Virus record (IMG/VR): IMGVR_UViG_2802429224_000014
Origin: a virus
Taxonomy: Duplodnaviria > Heunggongvirae > Uroviricota > Caudoviricetes
DNA length: 11,145 nt
Strand: one strand, 5' to 3'
Below the pieces are notes generated by a model. That model saw nothing but the letters and a program-made list of their open reading frames with translations. It was not told the DNA's origin and did not search any database. This document shows, piece by piece, positions 1,118 through 11,145 of the stretch. How positions within the stretch are numbered: position 1 is the stretch's first letter; every line of letters begins with the position of its first letter. A program made the position numbers and the translations under genes.

Positions 1118-1320
1118 AGGTTTCCGAAAATATCAGTGAGTTAGCGATTAAGCTGGCGAGTAATTAAACTACGAAAATTTCGTAGTTTGTGACTATCTGA
1201 AAGATAGTCGGTTGATCCGGCCTCAGCCGTTGGCTGTTCCCGAAAATATCAACGGGTTAGGCTGGTTTCCCCGATGTTCGCCGCTGGCGAATTTCGAAAA
1301 TATCAACCAGTTACCGCCGT
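1118..1320 (+). repeat. three direct repeats with core CGAAAATATCA (at about 1125, 1243 and 1296), with two short palindromes between them (ACTACGAAA-A-TTTCGTAGT at 1169..1187; GACTATC-TGAAA-GATAGTC at 1191..1209)
   Basis: Read directly: gtttCCGAAAATATCAgtgagTTAgc / gttcCCGAAAATATCAacgggTTAgg / aattTCGAAAATATCAaccagTTAcc. Function unknown; the third copy overlaps the 3' end of the 1311..1595 ORF. Confidence 0.6.
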
Positions 1321-1595
1321 AACCGTTCCGGTTTCTTCCAGTGGTAAGTATTTTTCGCGCTCTCCCTCCGTTGCTGAGAACGGCGACGACATGCCAGCAA
1401 CTCGAGAACTCTGGTTCGTATGTTGCGCATATCCACGCCGTTAAGCTCGATACCGTCACGGCGCATCACCTCAGCCACTACACGCGCGTAATTTTCGGCT
1501 ACCACGCTGTCCGGCTGCATGGCCTCCTGTTTGCCTGCTGGCGGTCTGATTCCGGCAATCTGGCGAATCATTTTGAGCATTTCGGCTTCGGTCAT
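1311..1595 (-). CDS. hypothetical protein, about 94 aa, start chosen at the second ATG
   Basis: Minus-strand ORF; GGAGG lies 8 nt upstream of the ATG at 1595 (the ATG at 1601 has only a 2-nt spacer). No recognisable motifs. Sits just beyond the cosQ side of cos-A. Confidence 0.4.
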   Translation of the reverse strand: MTEAEMLKMIRQIAGIRPPAGKQEAMQPDSVVAENYARVVAEVMRRDGIELNGVDMRNIRTRVLELLACRRRSQQRRESAKNTYHWKKPERLRR

Positions 1596-1626
1596 TGTCA
1601 TGGCCTCCGTGGTGATGGAAAACAAT

Positions 1627-1860: not shown

Positions 1861-2445
1861 TCACTCACCTTTCTGTTGCCGTAATTTCTCCGGCACGTTT
1901 CCGGTTGTTTCCATCAGGTAGTCCTTCAGAATGCGGGGCAGGTTATCGGCAGTTTTAGCGCACGCATTACAGACGCGTGCTGTTTCTTTCCTCAGGCCCT
2001 CGATCATTGCCGGAGTCATCGCGGGGAACTGCCTTTGCATTGTGAGCGGTAAACTATCCATGATCGAAGAAATCTGGCGCGCCAGACCACGAAGCGCATA
2101 GAGAACGAACTCAGTATCTGTAACTTCCCCCGTCTCTCTGGCGTTCTTCAGTTCCTGCCCGTCCGCCTGTGCTTTGGTAAGACGGTAGCGTTCGTACTCT
2201 GTTGTGCCTGGCTGTAAATCTGATTCACCAGCAGCACGTAAATCATCAAGCTCCCTGCGGAGTTTTTCGTTTTCGATGTCCTTCTCCCTCTGTGCATACC
2301 ATTCGATCACCTGTGCAGAGTCGAAAGTCACTTCCACACCTTTACCCCCACCAGATACATGGGGAAGCCCTTGCGTTTGCCATCGTTCAATCGTGCGCGG
2401 ATCGACGCCAAAAATCTTCGCAATATTATTTTTATTAACATTCAT
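1861..2445 (-). CDS. terminase small subunit, lambda Nu1-like
   Basis: 194-aa ORF with AAGGAA RBS 7 nt upstream of the ATG at 2445. The N-terminal half aligns by eye with lambda Nu1 (MNVNKNNIAKIFGVDPRTIERWQTQGLPHVSGGGKGVEVTFDSAQVIEWY...IENEKLRREL...DLQPGTTEYERYRLTKAQADGQELKNAR versus lambda MEVNKKQLADIFGASIRTIQNWQEQGMPVLRGGGKGNEVLYDSAAVIKWY...). Confidence 0.9.
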   Translation of the reverse strand: MNVNKNNIAKIFGVDPRTIERWQTQGLPHVSGGGKGVEVTFDSAQVIEWYAQREKDIENEKLRRELDDLRAAGESDLQPGTTEYERYRLTKAQADGQELKNARETGEVTDTEFVLYALRGLARQISSIMDSLPLTMQRQFPAMTPAMIEGLRKETARVCNACAKTADNLPRILKDYLMETTGNVPEKLRQQKGE

Positions 2446-2696: not shown

Positions 2697-2729
2697 CAAA
2701 AAAATCGCGAGGCCTTGCCAACCTCGCGA
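2697..2729 (-). terminator. rho-independent terminator between the capsid operon and cos-B/TerS
   Basis: On the minus strand, TCGCGAGG-ttggcaagg-CCTCGCGA hairpin (8-bp stem) followed by TTTTTTTGTGT, 14 nt after the stop of the 141-aa ORF. Confidence 0.6.
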
Positions 2730-2742
2730 ACGTTCATTTCAG

Positions 2743-3168
2743 TTACTTAACAGACAGCAACAGCTTTTCATCTTCGGTCAGTCCGGCGTTACCATCACCG
2801 GCTGCTGGCCCAACACATTTCGGGCTGTGCTTTTCCATGTACGCATCAAACAAAAAAGCCGTTTTCTTTTCCTGCATCATTGCCTGGGCATCCACAGTAG
2901 CCAATAACGTTTGTGCATAGGTTACTGTCATTGCTTCAGAATCACACTCAATCAGCTTACTGGTGAACTCAGGGTATTTTGATGCCAGCGGTAAAGCCTT
3001 GATACCCTCTATGCGCTGTTTATCACTCTCAGCCTTTGCAGTAAGCACCGTTCGGGCTTCTGTCAGTGATGCGCCATTATTCGCGAGATTTTCCGCAAGC
3101 GTCTGGTATTTCTGCGCTTCAGGCAGTGCCATGATCAATGCTCTGGTTGAATTTGCTTTCTCAGTCAT
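2743..3168 (-). CDS. hypothetical head-associated protein, 141 aa (possible scaffold or packaging-accessory role; unassigned)
   Basis: ORF in the capsid operon directly downstream of the gpD-like gene, with a 14-bp gap. No confident similarity recognised; position relative to E/D parallels lambda FI but the sequence does not obviously match. Confidence 0.55.
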   Translation of the reverse strand: MTEKANSTRALIMALPEAQKYQTLAENLANNGASLTEARTVLTAKAESDKQRIEGIKALPLASKYPEFTSKLIECDSEAMTVTYAQTLLATVDAQAMMQEKKTAFLFDAYMEKHSPKCVGPAAGDGNAGLTEDEKLLLSVK

Positions 3169-3182
3169 AAATCACCACAAAA

Positions 3183-3512
3183 TTATTGCCCTAAAGGCTG
3201 TACGGAAATACCGGAACCAACAAAAGCCGACACTTTTTTCTCGAACGTGTCCGCTGTATCAGGCCAGTTAATTTCATCGATATTAAAAACCCCGCACTTA
3301 TAAACCTGTGCGCGGTTTTTTGTGGCCGTGTTAATGTCCGATATGGTCAGATACACCGCCTTACCGGGTGTACCGTCCCACTCAACCATCAGGCCTGCGC
3401 CGTTCTGCATCAGCGGAGTTCTCGCTTTAATTTCTCCGGCACTGGCAAAACAGGCCAGCGTGCTGACCAGTTCCTGCGTGCCGGAAAGTAATTGCGTGTA
3501 AGGTGTTGGCAT
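3183..3512 (-). CDS. head decoration protein, lambda gpD-like
   Basis: 109-aa ORF with AAGGGGA RBS. Shares the gpD pattern by eye: TPLM...WDGT...YKxGxF...WP...AFxGxxIS (lambda ...[21 protein letters not shown]...[36 protein letters not shown]). Confidence 0.85.
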   Translation of the reverse strand: MPTPYTQLLSGTQELVSTLACFASAGEIKARTPLMQNGAGLMVEWDGTPGKAVYLTISDINTATKNRAQVYKCGVFNIDEINWPDTADTFEKKVSAFVGSGISVQPLGQ

Positions 3513-3522
3513 ACGATCCCCT

Positions 3523-4578
3523 TTATTTCACTTCGACGGTAACAAAGCGACCAATATCCACGGGTACTGGCTGCGGGGCGCTGTGCGTCTGCACGTATTC
3601 AATCGCCGGATCGCCCGGTACGATATAATTTTTCGGGTAGTACATCCCCTCAGAAAATCCCTCGCGTGCCGCGTCCTGATCCATGATGGCACCATAAGCA
3701 ACAAGGCCTTTATTTTCGGTATTGCCGAAAACCATCATGTTTTGTTTCAGGAAATATTGCTGCTGCCCGTTTTCGTCGTCATAACGACCGGAATAAACCA
3801 CGAGCGCCACATCACCGAGATACCCCTTGAAGCTGACAACGCCGCCCAAATCTTTTAGCGCAAGTTCAAGTGACGAGTTTGAACCGCGACGCGTGTCCAG
3901 GAGTTCGCGGAATCGACGGAACGAGCGCAAAATACGCCAGGCTTCGCCACCCATGACGATAATATTTACCGTACCTTCGGAAAAATCAGCGTAAGCCTCA
4001 ATGTCGCTTATCGGATCAAACGTTTCGGCATCCTGTTTTGACCATTCTTTCCCGCCAGCCTGCGTAATATGATTGGTTGCGGGTAATCCCCAGTCAATTT
4101 CATAACGCTCAATGCCTTCGCCCTCAATAACGTTACGGCCTGTTGTGATGGCATTGACCGCCAGCCATTCAACACGCGCTTTGATGGCTGCAAGCTGTTT
4201 TTTCTGGCTGTCGTGAACCATTTTTACGCGGCGTAGTGCCGGGGAAGACTGACCATTGCCGATCTGTTCTCCAGCCATGCGCATGATTGTTTTAGTGGGA
4301 TCAATAACGTGTTTGGGCTTCATATAACCCGGCGTGAAAGTGTTCGTTGTAAAACCTTTGTCACGCATAACCTGACTGCCTGACATTGGTGAACAAAACG
4401 GACTCATGACCACGTTTTCAATGTCCAGCGTATCAAGCGCAATATCTCGCGTACTGAACGTGGCGATATTCGGAAAAAACAGCGTCGTAAAGAGCGGATT
4501 AAATTTAAATTCCGGCACATCTTCGCGCCCGATATTTTTCAGTAGCGTTGGTGTGCTTACCAGTTGCAGCGCTGTCAT
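3523..4578 (-). CDS. major capsid protein, lambda gpE-like
   Basis: 351-aa ORF, start overlapping the upstream stop (ATGA). Conserved gpE blocks recognisable by eye: FKFNPLF..LFF, FTPGYMKPKH, ITQAGGKEWSK, DIEAYA, VNIIV, LDTRRGSNSSLE..LKDLG..VSFKGYLGDVALVVYSGRY, YPKN, GDPA, SAP. Confidence 0.93.
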   Translation of the reverse strand: MTALQLVSTPTLLKNIGREDVPEFKFNPLFTTLFFPNIATFSTRDIALDTLDIENVVMSPFCSPMSGSQVMRDKGFTTNTFTPGYMKPKHVIDPTKTIMRMAGEQIGNGQSSPALRRVKMVHDSQKKQLAAIKARVEWLAVNAITTGRNVIEGEGIERYEIDWGLPATNHITQAGGKEWSKQDAETFDPISDIEAYADFSEGTVNIIVMGGEAWRILRSFRRFRELLDTRRGSNSSLELALKDLGGVVSFKGYLGDVALVVYSGRYDDENGQQQYFLKQNMMVFGNTENKGLVAYGAIMDQDAAREGFSEGMYYPKNYIVPGDPAIEYVQTHSAPQPVPVDIGRFVTVEVK

Positions 4579-4784
4579 TGCTCACCCCCATGAGGCTGAT
4601 TCATGCCAAGCGCAGCGCGTAAATGGCTGCGTACCATCCAGCCGACTGACGGCTTCACCAGGCACAACGGATCAAGGCCGACTTTTTTTCCTGCCTCTGC
4701 GTTCTCCTCAAAGCGCGCATTAAGTGCGGCGATAATATCGGGGCTGATGTACACGGATACACCGCCCGGCTTCTGTGTTCCCAT
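4575..4784 (-). CDS. hypothetical protein, 69 aa, first gene of the capsid operon
   Basis: The ATG at 4784 is preceded by AAGAGGAA at 8 nt; the longer track ORF from 4850 lacks an RBS. Translationally coupled to the capsid gene. No motif recognised. Confidence 0.5.
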   Translation of the reverse strand: MGTQKPGGVSVYISPDIIAALNARFEENAEAGKKVGLDPLCLVKPSVGWMVRSHLRAALGMNQPHGGEQ

Positions 4785-4833
4785 AAATGAGATTCCTCTT
4801 TGACTAAAAAACAAACATAACGAAAAGTCAGTC

Positions 4834-4866
4834 ATGATTTTAATCATCATTGCATTTTTTGCAATG
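4834..4866 (-). promoter_or_regulatory. candidate sigma70 promoter for the capsid operon, overlapped by two palindromes
   Basis: Minus strand: -35 TTGCAA (4864..4859), 16-bp spacer, -10 TAAAAT (4842..4837), about 45 nt upstream of the 69-aa ORF. Overlapping inverted repeats CATTGCA-ttttt-TGCAATG (4848..4866) and ATGATT-tt-AATCAT (4834..4847). Confidence 0.4.
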
Positions 4867-4947
4867 CAATTGACTGTTGTTGCAAATCATGAAATTATCA
4901 CGCCGTGGTTTTATCACCCCAAACCGCATTAATGGTCATTGCATGAA

Positions 4948-4981
4948 ATCCCCCGGAACCTCATCCCGGGGGATTTTTTTT
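4948..4981 (+). terminator. rho-independent terminator on the plus strand
   Basis: ATCCCCCGG-aacctcatc-CCGGGGGAT hairpin (9-bp stem) followed by T8. No plus-strand gene lies upstream; see findings for a candidate short plus-strand transcript. Confidence 0.55.
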
Positions 4982-4984
4982 GCG

Positions 4985-5012
4985 CACAAAAAAACCGGGA
5001 AAAATCCCGGCT
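4985..5012 (-). terminator. rho-independent terminator after the SSB-like gene
   Basis: On the minus strand, CCGGGA-tttt-TCCCGG hairpin followed by TTTTTTTGTG, about 16 nt after the SSB-like stop codon. Confidence 0.6.
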
Positions 5013-5027
5013 TCTGTCACTCGTTGC

Positions 5028-5450
5028 TTAAAACGGTATGTTATCCCCGTACGGATCATCATTTCCCGCCTGTTGTTTTGCCCTGTTCAGTGCGTCAGTA
5101 GCCTGGCCCTGCTGGCCTTTTTTGCCGCCCGGTCGCGCCGTTCGCGCACTGATTACACTGTCTGCGATAACCTGCCAGCCCTGCCGCGTTTCGCCGTTCT
5201 GGCCTGTCCACTGGCTTACCTGCATGTTACCCGCCACGCTCACCAGTTCGCCTTTGTGGTGCCTGGCCAGTGCGTCGGCCTGTCTGCCAAACGCCAGGAC
5301 GGATAACCACATCGTCGCCGTTCCGTCATCGGCCTGGCTGCACGGCAGGGGAACCGCCATACTCGCCATCGCCATTTGTGTCCCTTTGCTGGTGGTCTTT
5401 AACTGCGGGTCAGCCACCAGCCGCCCGTAAGCCGCTATCTGTGCTGTCAT
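5028..5450 (-). CDS. single-stranded DNA-binding protein, short SSB-like
   Basis: 140-aa ORF with GGAGAG RBS, ending in DDPYGDNIPF, which resembles the acidic SSB C-terminal tip (E. coli SSB ends DDDIPF). The preceding Gly/Gln-rich linker and N-terminal region are consistent with an OB fold. Confidence 0.75.
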   Translation of the reverse strand: MTAQIAAYGRLVADPQLKTTSKGTQMAMASMAVPLPCSQADDGTATMWLSVLAFGRQADALARHHKGELVSVAGNMQVSQWTGQNGETRQGWQVIADSVISARTARPGGKKGQQGQATDALNRAKQQAGNDDPYGDNIPF

Positions 5451-5899: not shown

Positions 5900-7306
5900 T
5901 TACAGTGGTCCTACATCATCGCCGTCGATGTGAATCACGCCGTCTTTTTCCAACTTGGATAGCCAGCGCCGCATATTTTTCACATCGTACCCAAGCCTTT
6001 TCATGTCATCGCGCAACAACGGGATAGTGCATTTATCGCCTCGCTGTATGCGTGAACGGATACAGCCCCAAAGCGCTGTATGATTCTCCGTCTTGTTCCC
6101 GGCCTCCTCGATGCGTTCCAGTTCAGCAGGGGCGCGGGGAACGTCAATCACCACCATGGACACAATCTCTTCGCCATCTGTATCGGTAAACACCTCCACG
6201 CTTTTAAGGTCGTATGCGCTTTCTTTTGGCTCCTCTGCGTCCTTCATCTTCGTACACGCCGCCACCAGTGCTGTAACGTCTGAATTTTCCCGGCTGATTC
6301 GGTACTCTGCATCCAGTGCAGCACGGAATGCGCTGGAACCACGCGCCCCCTTTGTTTCATCCTTGCCGGAATGGTGAACCACCAGCACCGTGGCCCCTGT
6401 GGCCTGCTTTATCGCGTCACACCCCTGGATAAATGCGCCCATATCACGGGAATCATTTTCATCATTCCCACCAAAGCAACGGGCCAGCGTGTCTATCACA
6501 ATCAGCCGCACATTTTCGCCCGTTCTGCTCTTAACAAGTCCGGCAGTCCTGATAACCTGCTCCACATAGTCAGGCGATGCAGGGAAGACAGGCGCGTTAA
6601 CGATGCACAAATCCGTAACCACCTTGTCGTGGGTTATCTCCCACGCCTTAACGCGGCGTTTTACGCCCATGCTGCCTTCACCAGCGATATAGATAACCGC
6701 GCCCTTACTGACCCTGCGACCTCCCCATGCCATACCTGTGGCAACATGGCACGACCAGGAAATGGCGAGGAACGATTTATAAGAACCGCTGGCCCCGTAG
6801 GTGCTGCATAATGATTCAGCCGGAATAAGCCCCTTAATTACGTAGCTTTGCTGCGCGTCGAATCCCTCAGAACCCCATGAGATGGGAAGTGTGATTTTTC
6901 GCTTTCCACCATTCATGACCAGGCTTTCCCCACGTTCCCAGGTTTCTTTAAGGCGCGGTAGTTGCTCGCTCCAGTCCTCCAGTAGTTCGAAATTCTCTGA
7001 AAGTAACCGCGCTTCCCGGACACCTGCGATCGCCAGTTTGGTGGCAATGGTCAGCATCTGCATATCGTCCAGGTTTCCGGCGCGTATGACCTTTGCTCTG
7101 TATCGTCCTTCATCAACAATCTGTAAATTGTCCAGTTCGCTTAACTGATAACGGCCCAGGTAAACCGGAGGGATGGGATCGCCTGCTTTTTTGGCCTGTG
7201 CAATCATGTAATGTTCTGCAAAGGAGTGAGCATTATCACCCGCAAAAATAACCGCCTCAGTGTGTTTATCTTTCGGTAACAGTTTTACGTTTGGTGCCAG
7301 TTTCAT
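5900..7306 (-). CDS. replication protein: primase-like N-terminal region fused to a RecA-like (AAA_25/RepA-type) ATPase
   Basis: 468-aa ORF with AGAGGT RBS. Walker A-like GASGSYKS and Walker B-like RLIVIDTLARCF are visible, followed by VLVVHHSGKD. The domain order is typical of satellite/PICI primase-replicase proteins; assignment is by motif, not search. Confidence 0.85.
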   Translation of the reverse strand: MKLAPNVKLLPKDKHTEAVIFAGDNAHSFAEHYMIAQAKKAGDPIPPVYLGRYQLSELDNLQIVDEGRYRAKVIRAGNLDDMQMLTIATKLAIAGVREARLLSENFELLEDWSEQLPRLKETWERGESLVMNGGKRKITLPISWGSEGFDAQQSYVIKGLIPAESLCSTYGASGSYKSFLAISWSCHVATGMAWGGRRVSKGAVIYIAGEGSMGVKRRVKAWEITHDKVVTDLCIVNAPVFPASPDYVEQVIRTAGLVKSRTGENVRLIVIDTLARCFGGNDENDSRDMGAFIQGCDAIKQATGATVLVVHHSGKDETKGARGSSAFRAALDAEYRISRENSDVTALVAACTKMKDAEEPKESAYDLKSVEVFTDTDGEEIVSMVVIDVPRAPAELERIEEAGNKTENHTALWGCIRSRIQRGDKCTIPLLRDDMKRLGYDVKNMRRWLSKLEKDGVIHIDGDDVGPL

Positions 7307-8025: not shown

Positions 8026-8110
8026 AAAACTACCTCTCATAACGGTTTGTGGTTATAAGCCCTGCCAGTGGTAACGACACTTGCGGGGCTTTGCTTTTTG
8101 CGCCGATTGT

Positions 8111-8129
8111 GTGTAATGTGTCATTACAC
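8111..8129. promoter_or_regulatory. operator-like perfect inverted repeat GTGTAATG-tgt-CATTACAC in the divergent promoter region, with a third CATTACA half-site at 8137..8143
   Basis: Read directly; lies between the leftward operon (start 8025) and the plus-strand Arc-like gene (start 8159). Confidence 0.5.
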
Positions 8130-8158
8130 ATAAATACATTACATGAGGTGTAATTAAC

Positions 8159-8338
8159 GTGTCAACACACAAAAACGAAAGGCGTGGTAATCCTCCGTTC
8201 CAGTTCCGTTTAGATCCTGACTTACGGGAAAAGATGGAAAAAGCACAACAACAGGACGGCGATGATTCTCTTGCTGCCTGGATAAAGCGAATAATCCGCA
8301 AAGAATTACAACAGCGCGGTATCGAGCCAAAAGGCTGA
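8159..8338 (+). CDS. Arc/MetJ-type ribbon-helix-helix DNA-binding protein, 59 aa, GTG start
   Basis: Absent from the ORF track (GTG start, under 60 aa). GAGGTG RBS 8 nt upstream. Translation VSTHKNERRGNPPFQFRLDPDLREKMEKAQQQDGDDSLAAWIKRIIRKELQQRGIEPKG has the basic N-terminus, beta-strand, two-helix layout of Arc-family repressors. It is the only convincing plus-strand gene in the island. Confidence 0.65.
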   Translation: MSTHKNERRGNPPFQFRLDPDLREKMEKAQQQDGDDSLAAWIKRIIRKELQQRGIEPKG

Positions 8339-8427
8339 TAATCCACCAGCAAGCCAGCACACTGATCACATTGCCCACCAGCCAGCAAATCGCTATGATG
8401 TTCGGGCTTATGTTTAGTGTTTTCATT

Positions 8428-8455
8428 GGCGACCGCCCCCGGTCGCCTTTGTTTT
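8428..8455 (+). terminator. rho-independent terminator downstream of the Arc-like gene
   Basis: GGCGACCG-cccc-CGGTCGCC hairpin (8-bp perfect stem) followed by TTTGTTTT on the plus strand; no T-tract on the minus strand. Confidence 0.6.
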
Positions 8456-8475: not shown

Positions 8476-8760
8476 TTATGCAGCTTTCTTACCGTACGGA
8501 TTATTGACTTTATCTACAGCAGGTGGGTTACGAACCCACCAAAGCACATCAGAGAGAAGCCACGCACAGCTATTGCGCCCGAAATGACAACGAAGCGGGA
8601 AACGCCCTTCATTTTCCATTTTGAAGCGAGTTGAGCGCGACAGACTGGTGATTTCCTGGCATTCCTTTTCACGGATACGGCGATCAAATTCAAAACCGTA
8701 TTCTTCAAGAAGCGCCCGGCGTTGTTCTGGAGTTGGGGGAATGAATGTAGTTTTTGTCAT
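8476..8760 (-). CDS. alpA: AlpA-family transcriptional regulator / excisionase-like HTH protein
   Basis: Start taken at the ATG at 8760 (GGAGG RBS 4 nt upstream), giving 94 aa. Contains the AlpA signature EITSLSRSTRFKMENEGRFPLRCHFGRNSCAWLLSDVLWWV (compare the family pattern LSRSTIYR...GxFP...W...V..W). Confidence 0.8.
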   Translation of the reverse strand: MTKTTFIPPTPEQRRALLEEYGFEFDRRIREKECQEITSLSRSTRFKMENEGRFPLRCHFGRNSCAWLLSDVLWWVRNPPAVDKVNNPYGKKAA

Positions 8761-8842
8761 ATTGCCTCCACTGTATCTATGCTTGCGGAGGCTATTTTGC
8801 AATCTTTAATACTGGATTAAAATACAGTAGTAATCATAGAAA

Positions 8843-9827: not shown

Positions 9828-9918
9828 TGCGCTACCCTCAACGCCCTAAATACTTTACGAGCCAGGCGGGTAGGGTTTCCCGCTTTTCGGTTGGCCGACC
9901 TATGCCCGTAATATCAGT

Positions 9919-11145
9919 TTAACCTCTATTCGATACAGGTAACAGCACCACATTTTGATGATTACCCGCCAGAAGTTCTAATCGGCCATACCACTTATTC
10001 AACGCATCCATTTTCTCAGGTAAGTACAGACTACGGTTATAAATAGCCATCACCCCCGGCAATGCATGACCAAGTAAAAGCTCTACAATATGTGGCGCAA
10101 TACCCATATTATTTAAACCTGTAGAAAATGTTCTGCGCAAATCGTGAAGCGTCCATGGCTCATTATGATGAAAATCTTTGTATAGCCTACGCCCTTTAAG
10201 CGAAGCAGCCTGGCGGGAACGTTCTTCACCCAGTACAATTCCTGTTTTTCCCGTTTCCTTTTTTAGATCCTCAATCCATGGGCGAATGCCCTCTGGAATT
10301 GGACGAACTATTTTTTCACGAGTTTTGCTGTGTTCTTTAGGAACCGTCCAAATCCATGACTGAAAATCCCATTCACTCCACCGGGATAATCTTACTTCCA
10401 TTGTTCGCGCCCCAAACAGCACAAGCAACTTAAGCAGACGAAGATAATAAAGTTGCTGTTCATCGCTATAAGTACACCGCCATACATCAGCTAACTCACT
10501 ATCTGACAGCACCCTATCACGCTGCCCCGATGGTTGCCCTACATCCTGGATTGTCATAAAAGCCAGGGCATCACATGAGGCATAACGGCGAACCTTGCAG
10601 AATCTTAAGGCCTGTTTACAAATCTGGAACATTCGCCCGGCAGTGATTGGCCTGGACTGGTTAATTTCATCAAAACATGCCACCCAGTGACGCGTTTCAC
10701 ACCGGGATAACGGATAGTGGCCAAGACGCGGATAAATATGCTTACGTAATTGCGCCCGCACCAGTTCCTCGTCACTACGTTTTTTTCTTGCGTAATGAAT
10801 TAGCCAATATTCAAGGGCATCATGGACAGTTACGGGGTTAAGGTTTTCTTCTGCGCTAAGTTCTAATTCAAGTCGTGGATTCAGCCCTTCCGCATACCAT
10901 TTTCGGCATAGTTCCCTCTTCTCCCTAGCCATTTTCAACGACATGTCAGGGTAACGCCCAAGAACAATGCGCTCTAACTTGCTCCCACGCCCACCAAGAC
11001 GATAAGAGAAAACCCAACTAATGCATCCCATCATGGATACTTTGATGCTTAATCCTTCACCATCCGCAATGGTAATTACTGAATCCCGCTTTACGCCGAG
11101 AAGCGATCTTAATTTTTTATCACTCAGTTTGTTTGTGCCAGCCAC
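9919..11145 (-). CDS. int: tyrosine recombinase/integrase, P4-family; N-terminus at or just beyond the window edge
   Basis: 408 codons from a GTG at the window edge to TAA at 9921..9919. N-terminal region resembles the P4-type integrase arm-binding domain (KLSDKKLRSLLG...ADGEGLSIKVS). C-terminal catalytic residues are visible: HDLRRTF, LLGHA and a tyrosine in AIYNRS. Confidence 0.92.
   Translation of the reverse strand: MAGTNKLSDKKLRSLLGVKRDSVITIADGEGLSIKVSMMGCISWVFSYRLGGRGSKLERIVLGRYPDMSLKMAREKRELCRKWYAEGLNPRLELELSAEENLNPVTVHDALEYWLIHYARKKRSDEELVRAQLRKHIYPRLGHYPLSRCETRHWVACFDEINQSRPITAGRMFQICKQALRFCKVRRYASCDALAFMTIQDVGQPSGQRDRVLSDSELADVWRCTYSDEQQLYYLRLLKLLVLFGARTMEVRLSRWSEWDFQSWIWTVPKEHSKTREKIVRPIPEGIRPWIEDLKKETGKTGIVLGEERSRQAASLKGRRLYKDFHHNEPWTLHDLRRTFSTGLNNMGIAPHIVELLLGHALPGVMAIYNRSLYLPEKMDALNKWYGRLELLAGNHQNVVLLPVSNRG

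Follow-up and report, generated by a model that had tools for sequence, protein, structure and literature searches.

What controls the capsid genes of phage-inducible chromosomal islands (PICIs), and what is served by a strong terminator that faces a strand with no gene on it? Both questions are raised by the gap between ssb and the capsid genes (Table 1) in an 11,145-nucleotide stretch of viral DNA (Caudoviricetes; IMG/VR record IMGVR_UViG_2802429224_000014; hereafter the window), which carries an EcCICFT073-type PICI adjoining hpt (1-537) and whose long open reading frames (ORFs) all lie on the minus strand. On balance, we favor an explanation in which this gap serves as the control region of a lambda-like capsid module, forms its upstream edge, and also holds a functional small RNA gene. 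The parts of this explanation differ in strength. We regard it as close to certain that the module boundary, its terminators, and an independent capsid promoter are real; a short plus-strand transcript is likely, judging from sequence and its conservation; and action of that RNA in trans by base pairing is a tentative proposal.

Opposed terminators and the capsid operon

A first-pass annotation, made from the letters of the DNA, had placed a minus-strand terminator at 4985..5012 and, beside it, a strong plus-strand terminator with no plus-strand gene to serve. The former is present exactly there, and the latter is confirmed: it is the strongest terminator in the window, and no coding sequence follows it on that strand, the next feature being the minus-strand terminator. 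We call them T(-) and T(+). Both consist of a GC-rich hairpin directly followed by a U-tract, the hallmark of intrinsic (Rho-independent) terminators, and they point in opposite directions 6 bp apart. T(-) begins 15 nt past the ssb stop codon (5028-5030), has a stem of 6 to 8 bp and an energy of -13 kcal/mol (folding z-score of -3.75 relative to shuffles), and takes its U7 from the A-run at 4988-4994. The arms of T(+), AAATCCCCCGG (4946-4956) and CCGGGGGATTT (4966-4976), are 100% complementary, the hairpin folds at -18 to -19 kcal/mol, and the T8 occupies 4974-4981. A scan for hairpins of -10 kcal/mol or below followed by at least T6 yielded 6 sites in the window, relative to 1.1 ± 1.0 in Markov-1 random sequences, with T(+) the strongest of the six. 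A rule-based terminator scan of the window lists neither T(+) nor T(-), because the loop of T(+) exceeds 8 nt and the stem of T(-) can extend into its own T-run.

The two terminators travel separately among related islands (loci other than the window are cited by our L numbers). The block comprising the capsid-operon promoter P(-), the operator-like dyads, the divergent promoter P(+), and T(+) moves with the lambda-E-like capsid module, and T(-) moves with the upstream module. Beyond T(+) lie T(-) and then ssb in the window; T(-), perC, and ssb in CFT073; T(-), a small ORF, and perC in TW14359; and a 170-bp spacer followed by T(-) and ssb in L113. T(+) is kept beside the promoter block even where 170 bp or perC intervenes. 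T(-)-type terminators stand behind ssb or perC in relatives and also in the Sp7 element of Sakai, which has T(-) and an HK97-type head module and is without P(+) and T(+). Because T(+) stays with the promoter block, the flank beyond it varies, and Sp7 lacks T(+), we place the module joint in the 4982-4987 interval of the window, which the two terminators flank. The separate travel of T(-) and the promoter/T(+) block bears out the earlier proposal of a module boundary between the SSB-like and capsid genes. T(-) terminates the ssb/replication operon, and modules are swapped at the T(-)/T(+) junction. Sp7 itself (L186, 9712-25172, labeled "Sp7; untypable") is a capsid-forming PICI with an HK97-type head, protease, portal, TerS, and TerL; its early module, pchE, and T(-) are held in common with the CFT073 and TW14359 islands at an identical phoQ-adjacent site, and it illustrates the exchange of a whole packaging module at the terminator joint.

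Expression data from the homologous island of CFT073 separate the capsid genes from their neighbors. Upon a shift from 23 to 37°C, RNA-seq recorded significant log2 increases for c1498 (+2.24), c1499 (+2.05), c1500 (+1.45), and c1501 (+1.17), whereas the values for the primase (+0.31), c1496 (+0.36), ssb (c1497; +0.24), and c1503 (rppA; +0.33) were not significant (PMC12890032, supplement). Homologues of the small ORF and of the capsid, decoration, and Nu3-like genes make up the responding four, which span exactly the interval from P(-) to a terminator of the 2705-2729 type, which coincides with the c1501/c1503 expression boundary. That c1498 to c1501 change while ssb and c1503 do not supports the independent regulation of the capsid operon that had been suggested for the window, and it supports an insulated unit that needs no helper induction to be active. 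It also rules out read-through from ssb as the sole origin of capsid mRNA, at any rate in the CFT073 island. Temperature-dependent silencing by a nucleoid protein would fit the AT-rich control region (28% GC at 4800-4899).

The leader of the capsid mRNA is unstructured in the window island (folding z of +0.87), and its ribosome-binding site (RBS) block, ATTCCTCTTTGACT, shows conservation across every class. Most CFT073-type loci carry, directly after P(-), a hairpin of 10 to 12 bp, CAUAACUGGAUG..CAUCCAGUUAUG, followed by AUUUUUU (L002, 7020-7047). This terminator-like element lies ~35 to 40 nt into the capsid mRNA, is absent from 4785-4830 of the window, and has compensatory variants (AGGAC..GUCCU in L137 and ACAAC..GUUGU in L172); possible roles are those of a promoter-proximal attenuator and of a stabilizing 5' hairpin.

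Divergent promoters and operator-like dyads

The first-pass annotation also described a sigma-70-like capsid promoter overlapped by two palindromes, which we find at the sites given, one over the -10 and the other over the -35, and a plus-strand promoter-like element, TTGACT-17-TG-a-AATTAT at 4870..4898, which is present and conserved in relatives. P(-) and P(+) each score 9 of 12 matches in a promoter scan, with hexamers at sigma-70 spacings (16 to 18 bp) and the key bases -11A and -7T, and their -35 hexamers are 5 bp apart. Transcription from P(-) is predicted to start near 4828-4831. Hexamers alone are not significant here, because the whole window holds 15 promoter-like matches and shuffles hold 17.3, and support must come from conservation instead.

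We drew on 88 loci recovered from IMG/VR via capsid alignment, which reduce to 60 unique variants, together with Salmonella, Edwardsiella, and one unassigned element added via small-ORF homologues, which provide another four classes (Salmonella L187; Salmonella L189/L191; Edwardsiella L192; and L195). TTG-17-TGnAATnAT recurs in essentially all of the 60 variants, together with a hairpin whose energy ranges from -11 to -22.5 kcal/mol, T6 to T8, and a predicted RNA of 70 to 99 nt; the exceptions are a few degenerate -35 hexamers (TCGATC, TTTGGT) and L108, whose promoter was mislocated and reads by eye as TTGTTC/TG/AATAAT. The four further classes have the same layout, yet other hairpins. Three diverged classes align over 4789-4898, and the alignment ends abruptly at 4898; the sequence beyond is unrelated and in each class runs into a different GC-rich hairpin with T7 or T8 on the plus strand. 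The T(+) position is held by at least six unrelated hairpin sequences, all in the same orientation across the 60 variants and four classes, and L174 has a compensatory insertion in the stem, with an added C in the 5' arm and its partner G in the 3' arm; replacement in place and paired insertion are the marks of a hairpin maintained by selection. The plus-side T-run (5 to 9) exceeds the minus-side one (0 to 6) in all classes.

Conservation is concentrated in the promoters and dyads. Between the window and CFT073, identity is 79% in the promoter/operator core, as compared with 67 to 70% in the flanking coding DNA, 64 to 70% over the DNA of the small ORF, capsid, and gpD genes, 56% in the terminator, and 50% in the RNA body; by these alignments, the core is conserved at least as well as coding DNA. 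Column conservation peaks at the -10 dyad, at O1, at the TTG of P(+), and at O2 with the P(+) -10, and it collapses just after 4899. The last T of the P(+) -10 (4898), which lies outside O2, is invariant in 59 of the 60 variants as located by script and also in L007 and L108 by eye. The CFT073-type P(-) reads TTGCnn-16-TATAAT. By BLAST, the full control region is found in 22 of 5,426 complete E. coli genomes, and 4789-4898 alone recurs far more widely, with 75 to 79% identity, for instance in CFT073, Nissle 1917, and ATCC 25922; the CFT073-type region occurs in about 600 of the 5,426 and the two types together in about 620 (about 11%). A BLAST search of the region against phage genomes gave no match, a capsid peptide scan of genome contigs confirmed nothing, and a contig scan with the pattern ATTCCTCTTTGACTNAAAAA returned chance matches only, including an unrelated Edwardsiella locus.

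A promoter and an oriented terminator held at a kept distance, despite full turnover of the sequence between them, lead us to argue that plus-strand transcription occurs and matters. The short plus-strand transcript of the first-pass annotation is thus considerably strengthened as a prediction, given that all 60 variants and the four further classes keep both promoter and terminator. Were no plus-strand transcript made, T(+) would be a backup or bidirectional terminator guarding P(-) from ssb or perC read-through, and the bases that we call P(+) would belong to O2 and to the upstream (UP element or activator) region of P(-). An A-tract of 3 to 6 on the 5' side of T(+) in most classes, which yields a hairpin plus U3 to U6 on the minus strand, suits such a role, as do the lack of a separate adjacent T(-) in the Edwardsiella and L195 classes, the overlap of O2 with the P(+) -10, and the ordinary frequency of promoter-like hexamers in the window. 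The U-tract, however, is always longer on the plus side (U8 versus AUUUCA in the window, with none on the minus side in Salmonella L189/L191), the T at 4898 is invariant though outside O2, TG and the -35 TTG stand at 17-bp spacing in all classes, and T(+) is retained beside the promoter block despite a good T(-) after ssb and a 170-bp spacer. We consider this explanation improbable.

Far less probable again is the idea that the plus-strand unit is the leader or attenuator, or its descendant, of a plus-strand protein gene since lost from the island. In the Edwardsiella loci L007 (3300-3488, minus strand) and L192, a phrog_1561/7271 gene lies just past T(+), on the opposite strand relative to its position in E. 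coli PICIs, and this plus-strand ORF begins ~95 nt beyond T(+). The window and all of the E. coli and Salmonella classes, however, have no plus-strand coding past T(+), where T(-), perC, or ssb comes next on the other strand, and we saw no conserved ORF or alternative antiterminator structure.

The dyads give the two promoters a common frame. The 14-bp dyad over the P(-) -10 undergoes a symmetric double change, from ATGATT..AATCAT to CTGATT..AATCAG, in part of the CFT073 class. O1, ATTGCA-N5-TGCAAT, is the sole perfect match to its motif in the window; O2, absent from the first-pass annotation and added here, is a degenerate copy with two mismatches (GTTGCA-N5-TGAAAT) that stands 30 bp, or three helical turns, from O1 in all classes. 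The CFT073 type has ATTGCA-N5-(T/A)GCAAT at O1 and the same O2 as the window; Edwardsiella has ATTGCA-N5-TGCAAC at O1 and a perfect ATTGCA-N5-TGCAAT at O2 (L007); and Salmonella has (A/G)TTGCA-N5-CGCAAC at O1 and, in L187, ATTTCA-N5-TGAAAT at O2. Exact ATTRCA-N5-TGYAAT occurs in 71 of the 197 loci fetched, almost always at the O1 position, and O1 is also retained in the Salmonella, Edwardsiella, and L195 classes. O1 and O2 are thus repeated dyads over divergent promoters, as in lambda OR, conserved across classes, and we predict that they are probably operators, in a layout usable by a dimeric repressor-type protein.

At lambda PRM/PR, back-to-back sigma-70 promoters start ~75 to 82 bp apart, and OR consists of three 17-bp dyad operators spaced at 23 to 24 bp. 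The window resembles this arrangement in its back-to-back promoters, in predicted starts at ~4830 (minus) and ~4905 (plus) that would lie ~75 bp apart, and in 17-bp dyads between and over both promoters, such that one protein could set both. It differs in having no sequence similarity to lambda, in having two operators 30 bp apart, and in that neither promoter apparently drives a repressor gene. In the mechanism that we favor, a single dimeric DNA-binding protein on O1 and O2 would set both promoters together.

Candidates for that protein were sought in the island and its likely partners. The 69-amino-acid product of the first capsid-operon gene was considered as an autoregulator and rejected: there was no profile or fold match, and its ribbon-helix-helix likeness was by eye only. 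Its AF2 model has two helices (pLDDT of 77), and its best-conserved stretch is GGVxVYISPDI, followed by a helix, a 13-residue insert, and then PSxGWxVRxxLRAAL. The Arc-like ribbon-helix-helix protein of the island (8159-8335) was also rejected, as the CFT073 protein and its upstream repeats differ while O1 and O2 are unchanged; in the window island, ATTACA-N5-TGTAAT precedes its gene (8138-8154). Lambda fails as a source of the binder, since the motif is not enriched in its genome. The helper-encoded factor that had been suggested for capsid control finds no support, given the temperature response of the homologous operon without helper induction and this lack of motif enrichment in lambda. 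As possible leads, we note that the -10 dyad may resemble Fur or FNR boxes, the TGCAA half-sites CytR octamers, and TTGC-N5-TTGC the sites of lambda CII. A direct repeat, TTATCACGCC / TTATCACCCC, lies at 4895-4920, at the 5' end of the predicted RNA, in the window class only and as half-sites only; its TTATCAC repeats contain TATCAC(C), the lambda operator half-site.

The predicted plus-strand RNA and its role

P(+) would yield a terminated RNA of ~77 nt. The predicted 77- to 79-nt molecule folds at -29 kcal/mol (z-score of -3.4), with nearly all of the energy coming from the terminator. It has its own promoter and terminator, contains no ORF, and falls within the 50 to 300 nt typical of small RNAs, as do its relatives at a predicted 70 to 99 nt; no ORF is conserved, most CFT073-type copies reading ATGAAATGA. 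The CFT073-type RNA is predicted to start ~7 nt past TGAAATGAT, between perC and c1498. We found no published record of this RNA in the literature.

Its architecture in the CFT073 class is that of an RNA with exchangeable parts: two unrelated 5' parts occur on one 3' part, whose linker, CCUCAUAUGCAAAAG, and terminator stem hardly vary. We envisage a terminator scaffold that would suit Hfq- or ProQ-type binding and bears a 5' part open to exchange, with the RNA acting in trans on helper or host targets outside the island. Two further features were noted. CCUC or CCUCC stands in the loop of 3 of 6 unrelated terminator hairpins, namely, AACCUCAUC (window, 4957-4965), CCACCUCUGAC or AUGCCUCCUGUA (L002, about 7170-7181), and UUUUAGCCUCCUCUUG (L189), and the CFT073-type linker holds another CCUC; pairing of this anti-Shine-Dalgarno-like motif, noticed post hoc, with the operon's own RBS is not significant. 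In L195 (1411-1887), a gene for a ProQ/FinO-domain RNA chaperone (PF04352, E of 1e-17) is next upstream, ~400 nt beyond T(+), at the position taken elsewhere by perC or ssb.

The strongest challenge to a functional RNA is that the unit may be transcribed for the sake of transcription. The RNA would then have no sequence-specific role; divergent transcription itself would matter, through coupling or competition with P(-) or through supercoiling, and T(+) would block an antisense run into the replication module. Conservation does extend to the promoter, orientation, and distance but not to the RNA body or the terminator sequence, no significant structure shows in the 5' part, no targets were found within islands, and with -35 hexamers 5 bp apart, polymerases and any protein bound to O1 or O2 must interact. 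The CFT073-class linker and stem, however, stay near-invariant even as the 5' sequence is swapped in one piece, which looks like selection on an RNA scaffold; U-tails of 6 to 9 and GC-rich stems exceed the needs of insulation; and the ProQ/FinO gene of L195 lies next upstream of the region. We hold transcription for its own sake to be unlikely, and we rank it behind a small RNA gene and ahead of both the absence of a plus-strand transcript and the lost-gene leader.

Several results weigh against a small RNA gene within an operator-controlled capsid module. The calls of P(-) and P(+) rest on hexamers and conservation, and operator conservation could account for part of the conserved P(+) bases, which overlap O2. 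No cognate binder of O1 and O2 was identified among the first-gene product, the Arc-like protein, and lambda, and searches with the first-gene product gave no Pfam, PDB-sequence, or significant Foldseek match and no detectable DNA-binding fold. The RNA-seq data come from a homologue that is 63 to 67% identical and sits in an island other than that of the window. No sequence of the RNA body is conserved between classes, in contrast to the conserved seed or structure expected of a small RNA; its 5' part does not exceed shuffles in structure (z averages -0.6 over 11 classes), and no Rfam family reaches its gathering score. Complementarity to island translation-start regions and transcripts is not above chance: duplex energies reach at most a |z| of 2.6 over 47 tests, and contiguous matches of at least 10 nt are as numerous as in shuffles. 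The survey of Hfq-binding RNAs in Sakai is uninformative here, because Sakai lacks a capsid module with P(+) and T(+). With no above-chance complementarity to any island mRNA, the small RNA is not supported as the extra layer of capsid regulation that the first-pass annotation envisaged.

Other candidate features and identities were rejected. A hairpin-linker-terminator architecture can be drawn in every class, yet its "conserved 5' hairpin" is no stabler than shuffles. An 11-nt match of the CFT073-type terminator arm to the junction of gpD and the next gene has no counterpart in the window. Subthreshold Rfam scores (ncr1175, 33.6 versus 60; rnk_leader, 29.7 versus 50; anti-hemB, 24.7 versus 49.5; ar14, 22.2 versus 58.8) are driven by the terminator, and a search of 10 related loci gave no Rfam matches at all. 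Esr41 (EcOnc14), which comes from an O157 island, measures ~70 nt, and has a GC hairpin followed by poly-U, is unrelated in sequence; it maps beside iha in SpLE1, away from any PICI capsid genes. In the part of the O157 Sakai EcOnc small RNA table that was examined, no entry maps to this island type, and a text search gave no entry for SpLE2 or ECs1588-1592.

A more ambitious version of the small RNA reading is speculative, and we rate it as doubtful. The region would be a mobile regulatory cassette, in which a two-operator bidirectional switch is combined with a modular small RNA whose 5' part, and perhaps also its CCUC-containing terminator loop, is matched to helper-phage or host transcripts.

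Known systems, the island, and significance

Short terminated RNAs are familiar from phages and satellites. Lambda oop (77 nt) is antisense to cII, the 6S RNA of pR'-tR' is the unmodified product of the Q-antiterminated late operon, and the CI RNA of P4 is processed from a longer transcript. The small RNA SviR of the Vibrio PLE, which is used against the helper (bioRxiv 10.1101/2022.04.08.487710), is the only satellite small RNA that we found described in the literature. The predicted window RNA resembles all four in having a strong promoter and an intrinsic terminator within 100 to 200 nt, inside a mobile element, and it is related to none of them by sequence or Rfam family. Unlike oop, it is overlapped by no gene, and unlike 6S, it has nothing coding downstream. 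The anti-small RNAs AgvB and AsxR and the Esr41 RNA, prophage-encoded Hfq-binding RNAs of pathogenic E. coli (PMC4104026, PMC5286369), offer a second comparison: they are likewise of 50 to 90 nt, with a GC-rich terminator, a long U-tail, and a location at module junctions of mobile elements, and the prophage anti-small RNAs combine a variable 5' part with a conserved 3' part, as does the CFT073-class RNA (PMC4104026).

The window island qualifies as a PICI on its gene content, with integrase, AlpA, replication, and capsid/packaging genes and no tail or lysis genes; membership also involves a size of ~10 to 15 kb and replication genes with an adjacent origin and was judged here from the genes. 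It is syntenic with EcCICFT073 and with the islands of N10, STEC383, and O157:H7 TW14359, and it shares with EcCICFT073/EcCIEDL933-type PICIs the order int, alpA, replication, ssb, (perC), small ORF, gpE-like, gpD-like (PMC6092414, PMC6739421). The stretch between perC and c1498 of EcCICFT073 aligns with the window control region at 75 to 79% identity. The window island differs from EcCICFT073 in its hpt-adjacent site, its RepA-type helicase, its lack of perC, and its full Nu1-like small terminase.

Table 1. Coordinates of the control-region features and genes of the window
Feature	Position	Strand	Details
Control-region gap between ssb and capsid genes	4785-5027		
T(-), ssb/replication operon terminator	5012-4985	-	Stem CCGGGA 4995-5000 / TCCCGG 5005-5010, 4-nt loop, then U7
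T(+), intrinsic terminator facing the plus strand	4946-4981	+	11-bp stem, 9-nt loop, T8
Predicted ~77-nt noncoding RNA	4905-4981	+	5' end placed from the P(+) -10
P(+), extended -10 promoter	4870-4898	+	TTGACT 4870-4875, 17-nt spacer, TG 4890-4891, AATTAT 4893-4898
O2, degenerate copy of the O1 dyad (predicted operator)	4879-4895		GTTGCAaatcaTGAAAT, over P(+) spacer and -10
O1, 17-bp dyad (predicted operator)	4849-4865		ATTGCAtttttTGCAAT, over P(-) -35
P(-), capsid-operon promoter	4864-4837	-	TTGCAA 4864-4859, 16-nt spacer, TAAAAT 4842-4837; near-consensus sigma-70
14-bp dyad	4834-4847		ATGATTttAATCAT, over P(-) -10
5' untranslated leader of capsid operon	4785-4830	-	RBS GAGGAA
phrog_3255 69-amino-acid protein, first gene of capsid operon	4575-4784	-	
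Capsid operon genes after the first gene	2743-4578	-	
Lambda gpE-like major capsid protein	3523-4578	-	
gpD-like decoration protein	3183-3512	-	
Nu3/protease-C-terminus-like protein	2743-3168	-	
Terminator closing the capsid operon	2705-2729	-	-16.9 kcal/mol, U7; only other strong minus-strand site
Nu1-like small terminase	1861-2445	-	
phrog_1561/7271 protein, last gene of E. coli PICIs	1311-1625	-	
ssb, last gene of upstream replication module	5028-5450	-	
RepA/AAA_25 helicase	5900-7306	-	
DUF4222 protein	Window ORF	-	
AlpA-family regulator	About 8476-8802	-	
Tyrosine integrase	9919-11145	-	

Three other regions of the island deserve mention. Between the capsid-operon terminator and the Nu1-like gene lie ~300 bp of noncoding DNA (2446-2742), likely a cos site by analogy with lambda and EcCICFT073. 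The plus-strand gene at 8159-8335 encodes the Arc-like protein (phrog_228; annotated as YlcI/YnfO in relatives), palindromes precede it, including ATTACAtgaggTGTAAT at 8138-8154 with the 6-5-6 geometry of O1, and a plus-strand terminator follows at 8428-8447; 8105-8447 is probably the early regulatory switch of the island. Between the integrase gene and the next ORF, an int-alpA RNA motif (Rfam RF02996) lies at 9844-9910 on the minus strand (55 bits, E of 2e-9).

The papers on PICIs describe AlpA control of the early operon (Fillol-Salom 2018, PMC6092414; 2019, PMC6739421), and we found no description in the PICI literature of this intergenic region, its promoters, its operators, or its RNA. 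The elements reported here are of familiar kinds, and this instance of them was previously undescribed, in a well-studied and widespread satellite family. Control of packaging and capsid genes in Gram-negative PICIs is essentially undescribed, the literature found being confined to AlpA activation of the early operon. Our analysis offers a map for EcCICFT073, with an insulated four-gene capsid operon, a strong promoter, conserved predicted operators that imply a regulator, and a candidate small RNA, that is relevant to Nissle 1917, ATCC 25922, and O157:H7 lineages, and the layout from P(-) to the terminator gives a structural reason for the temperature response of c1498 to c1501 in CFT073. Even if the RNA is not real, the region remains a clear case of terminators placed at the joints where mosaic mobile elements recombine. 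A real, trans-acting RNA would put satellites beside prophages among the sources of regulatory RNA in pathogenic E. coli; if the cassette reading is also true, the RNA would be the first small RNA described for a PICI and would add a layer of helper exploitation or host control that is coexpressed with the capsid genes.

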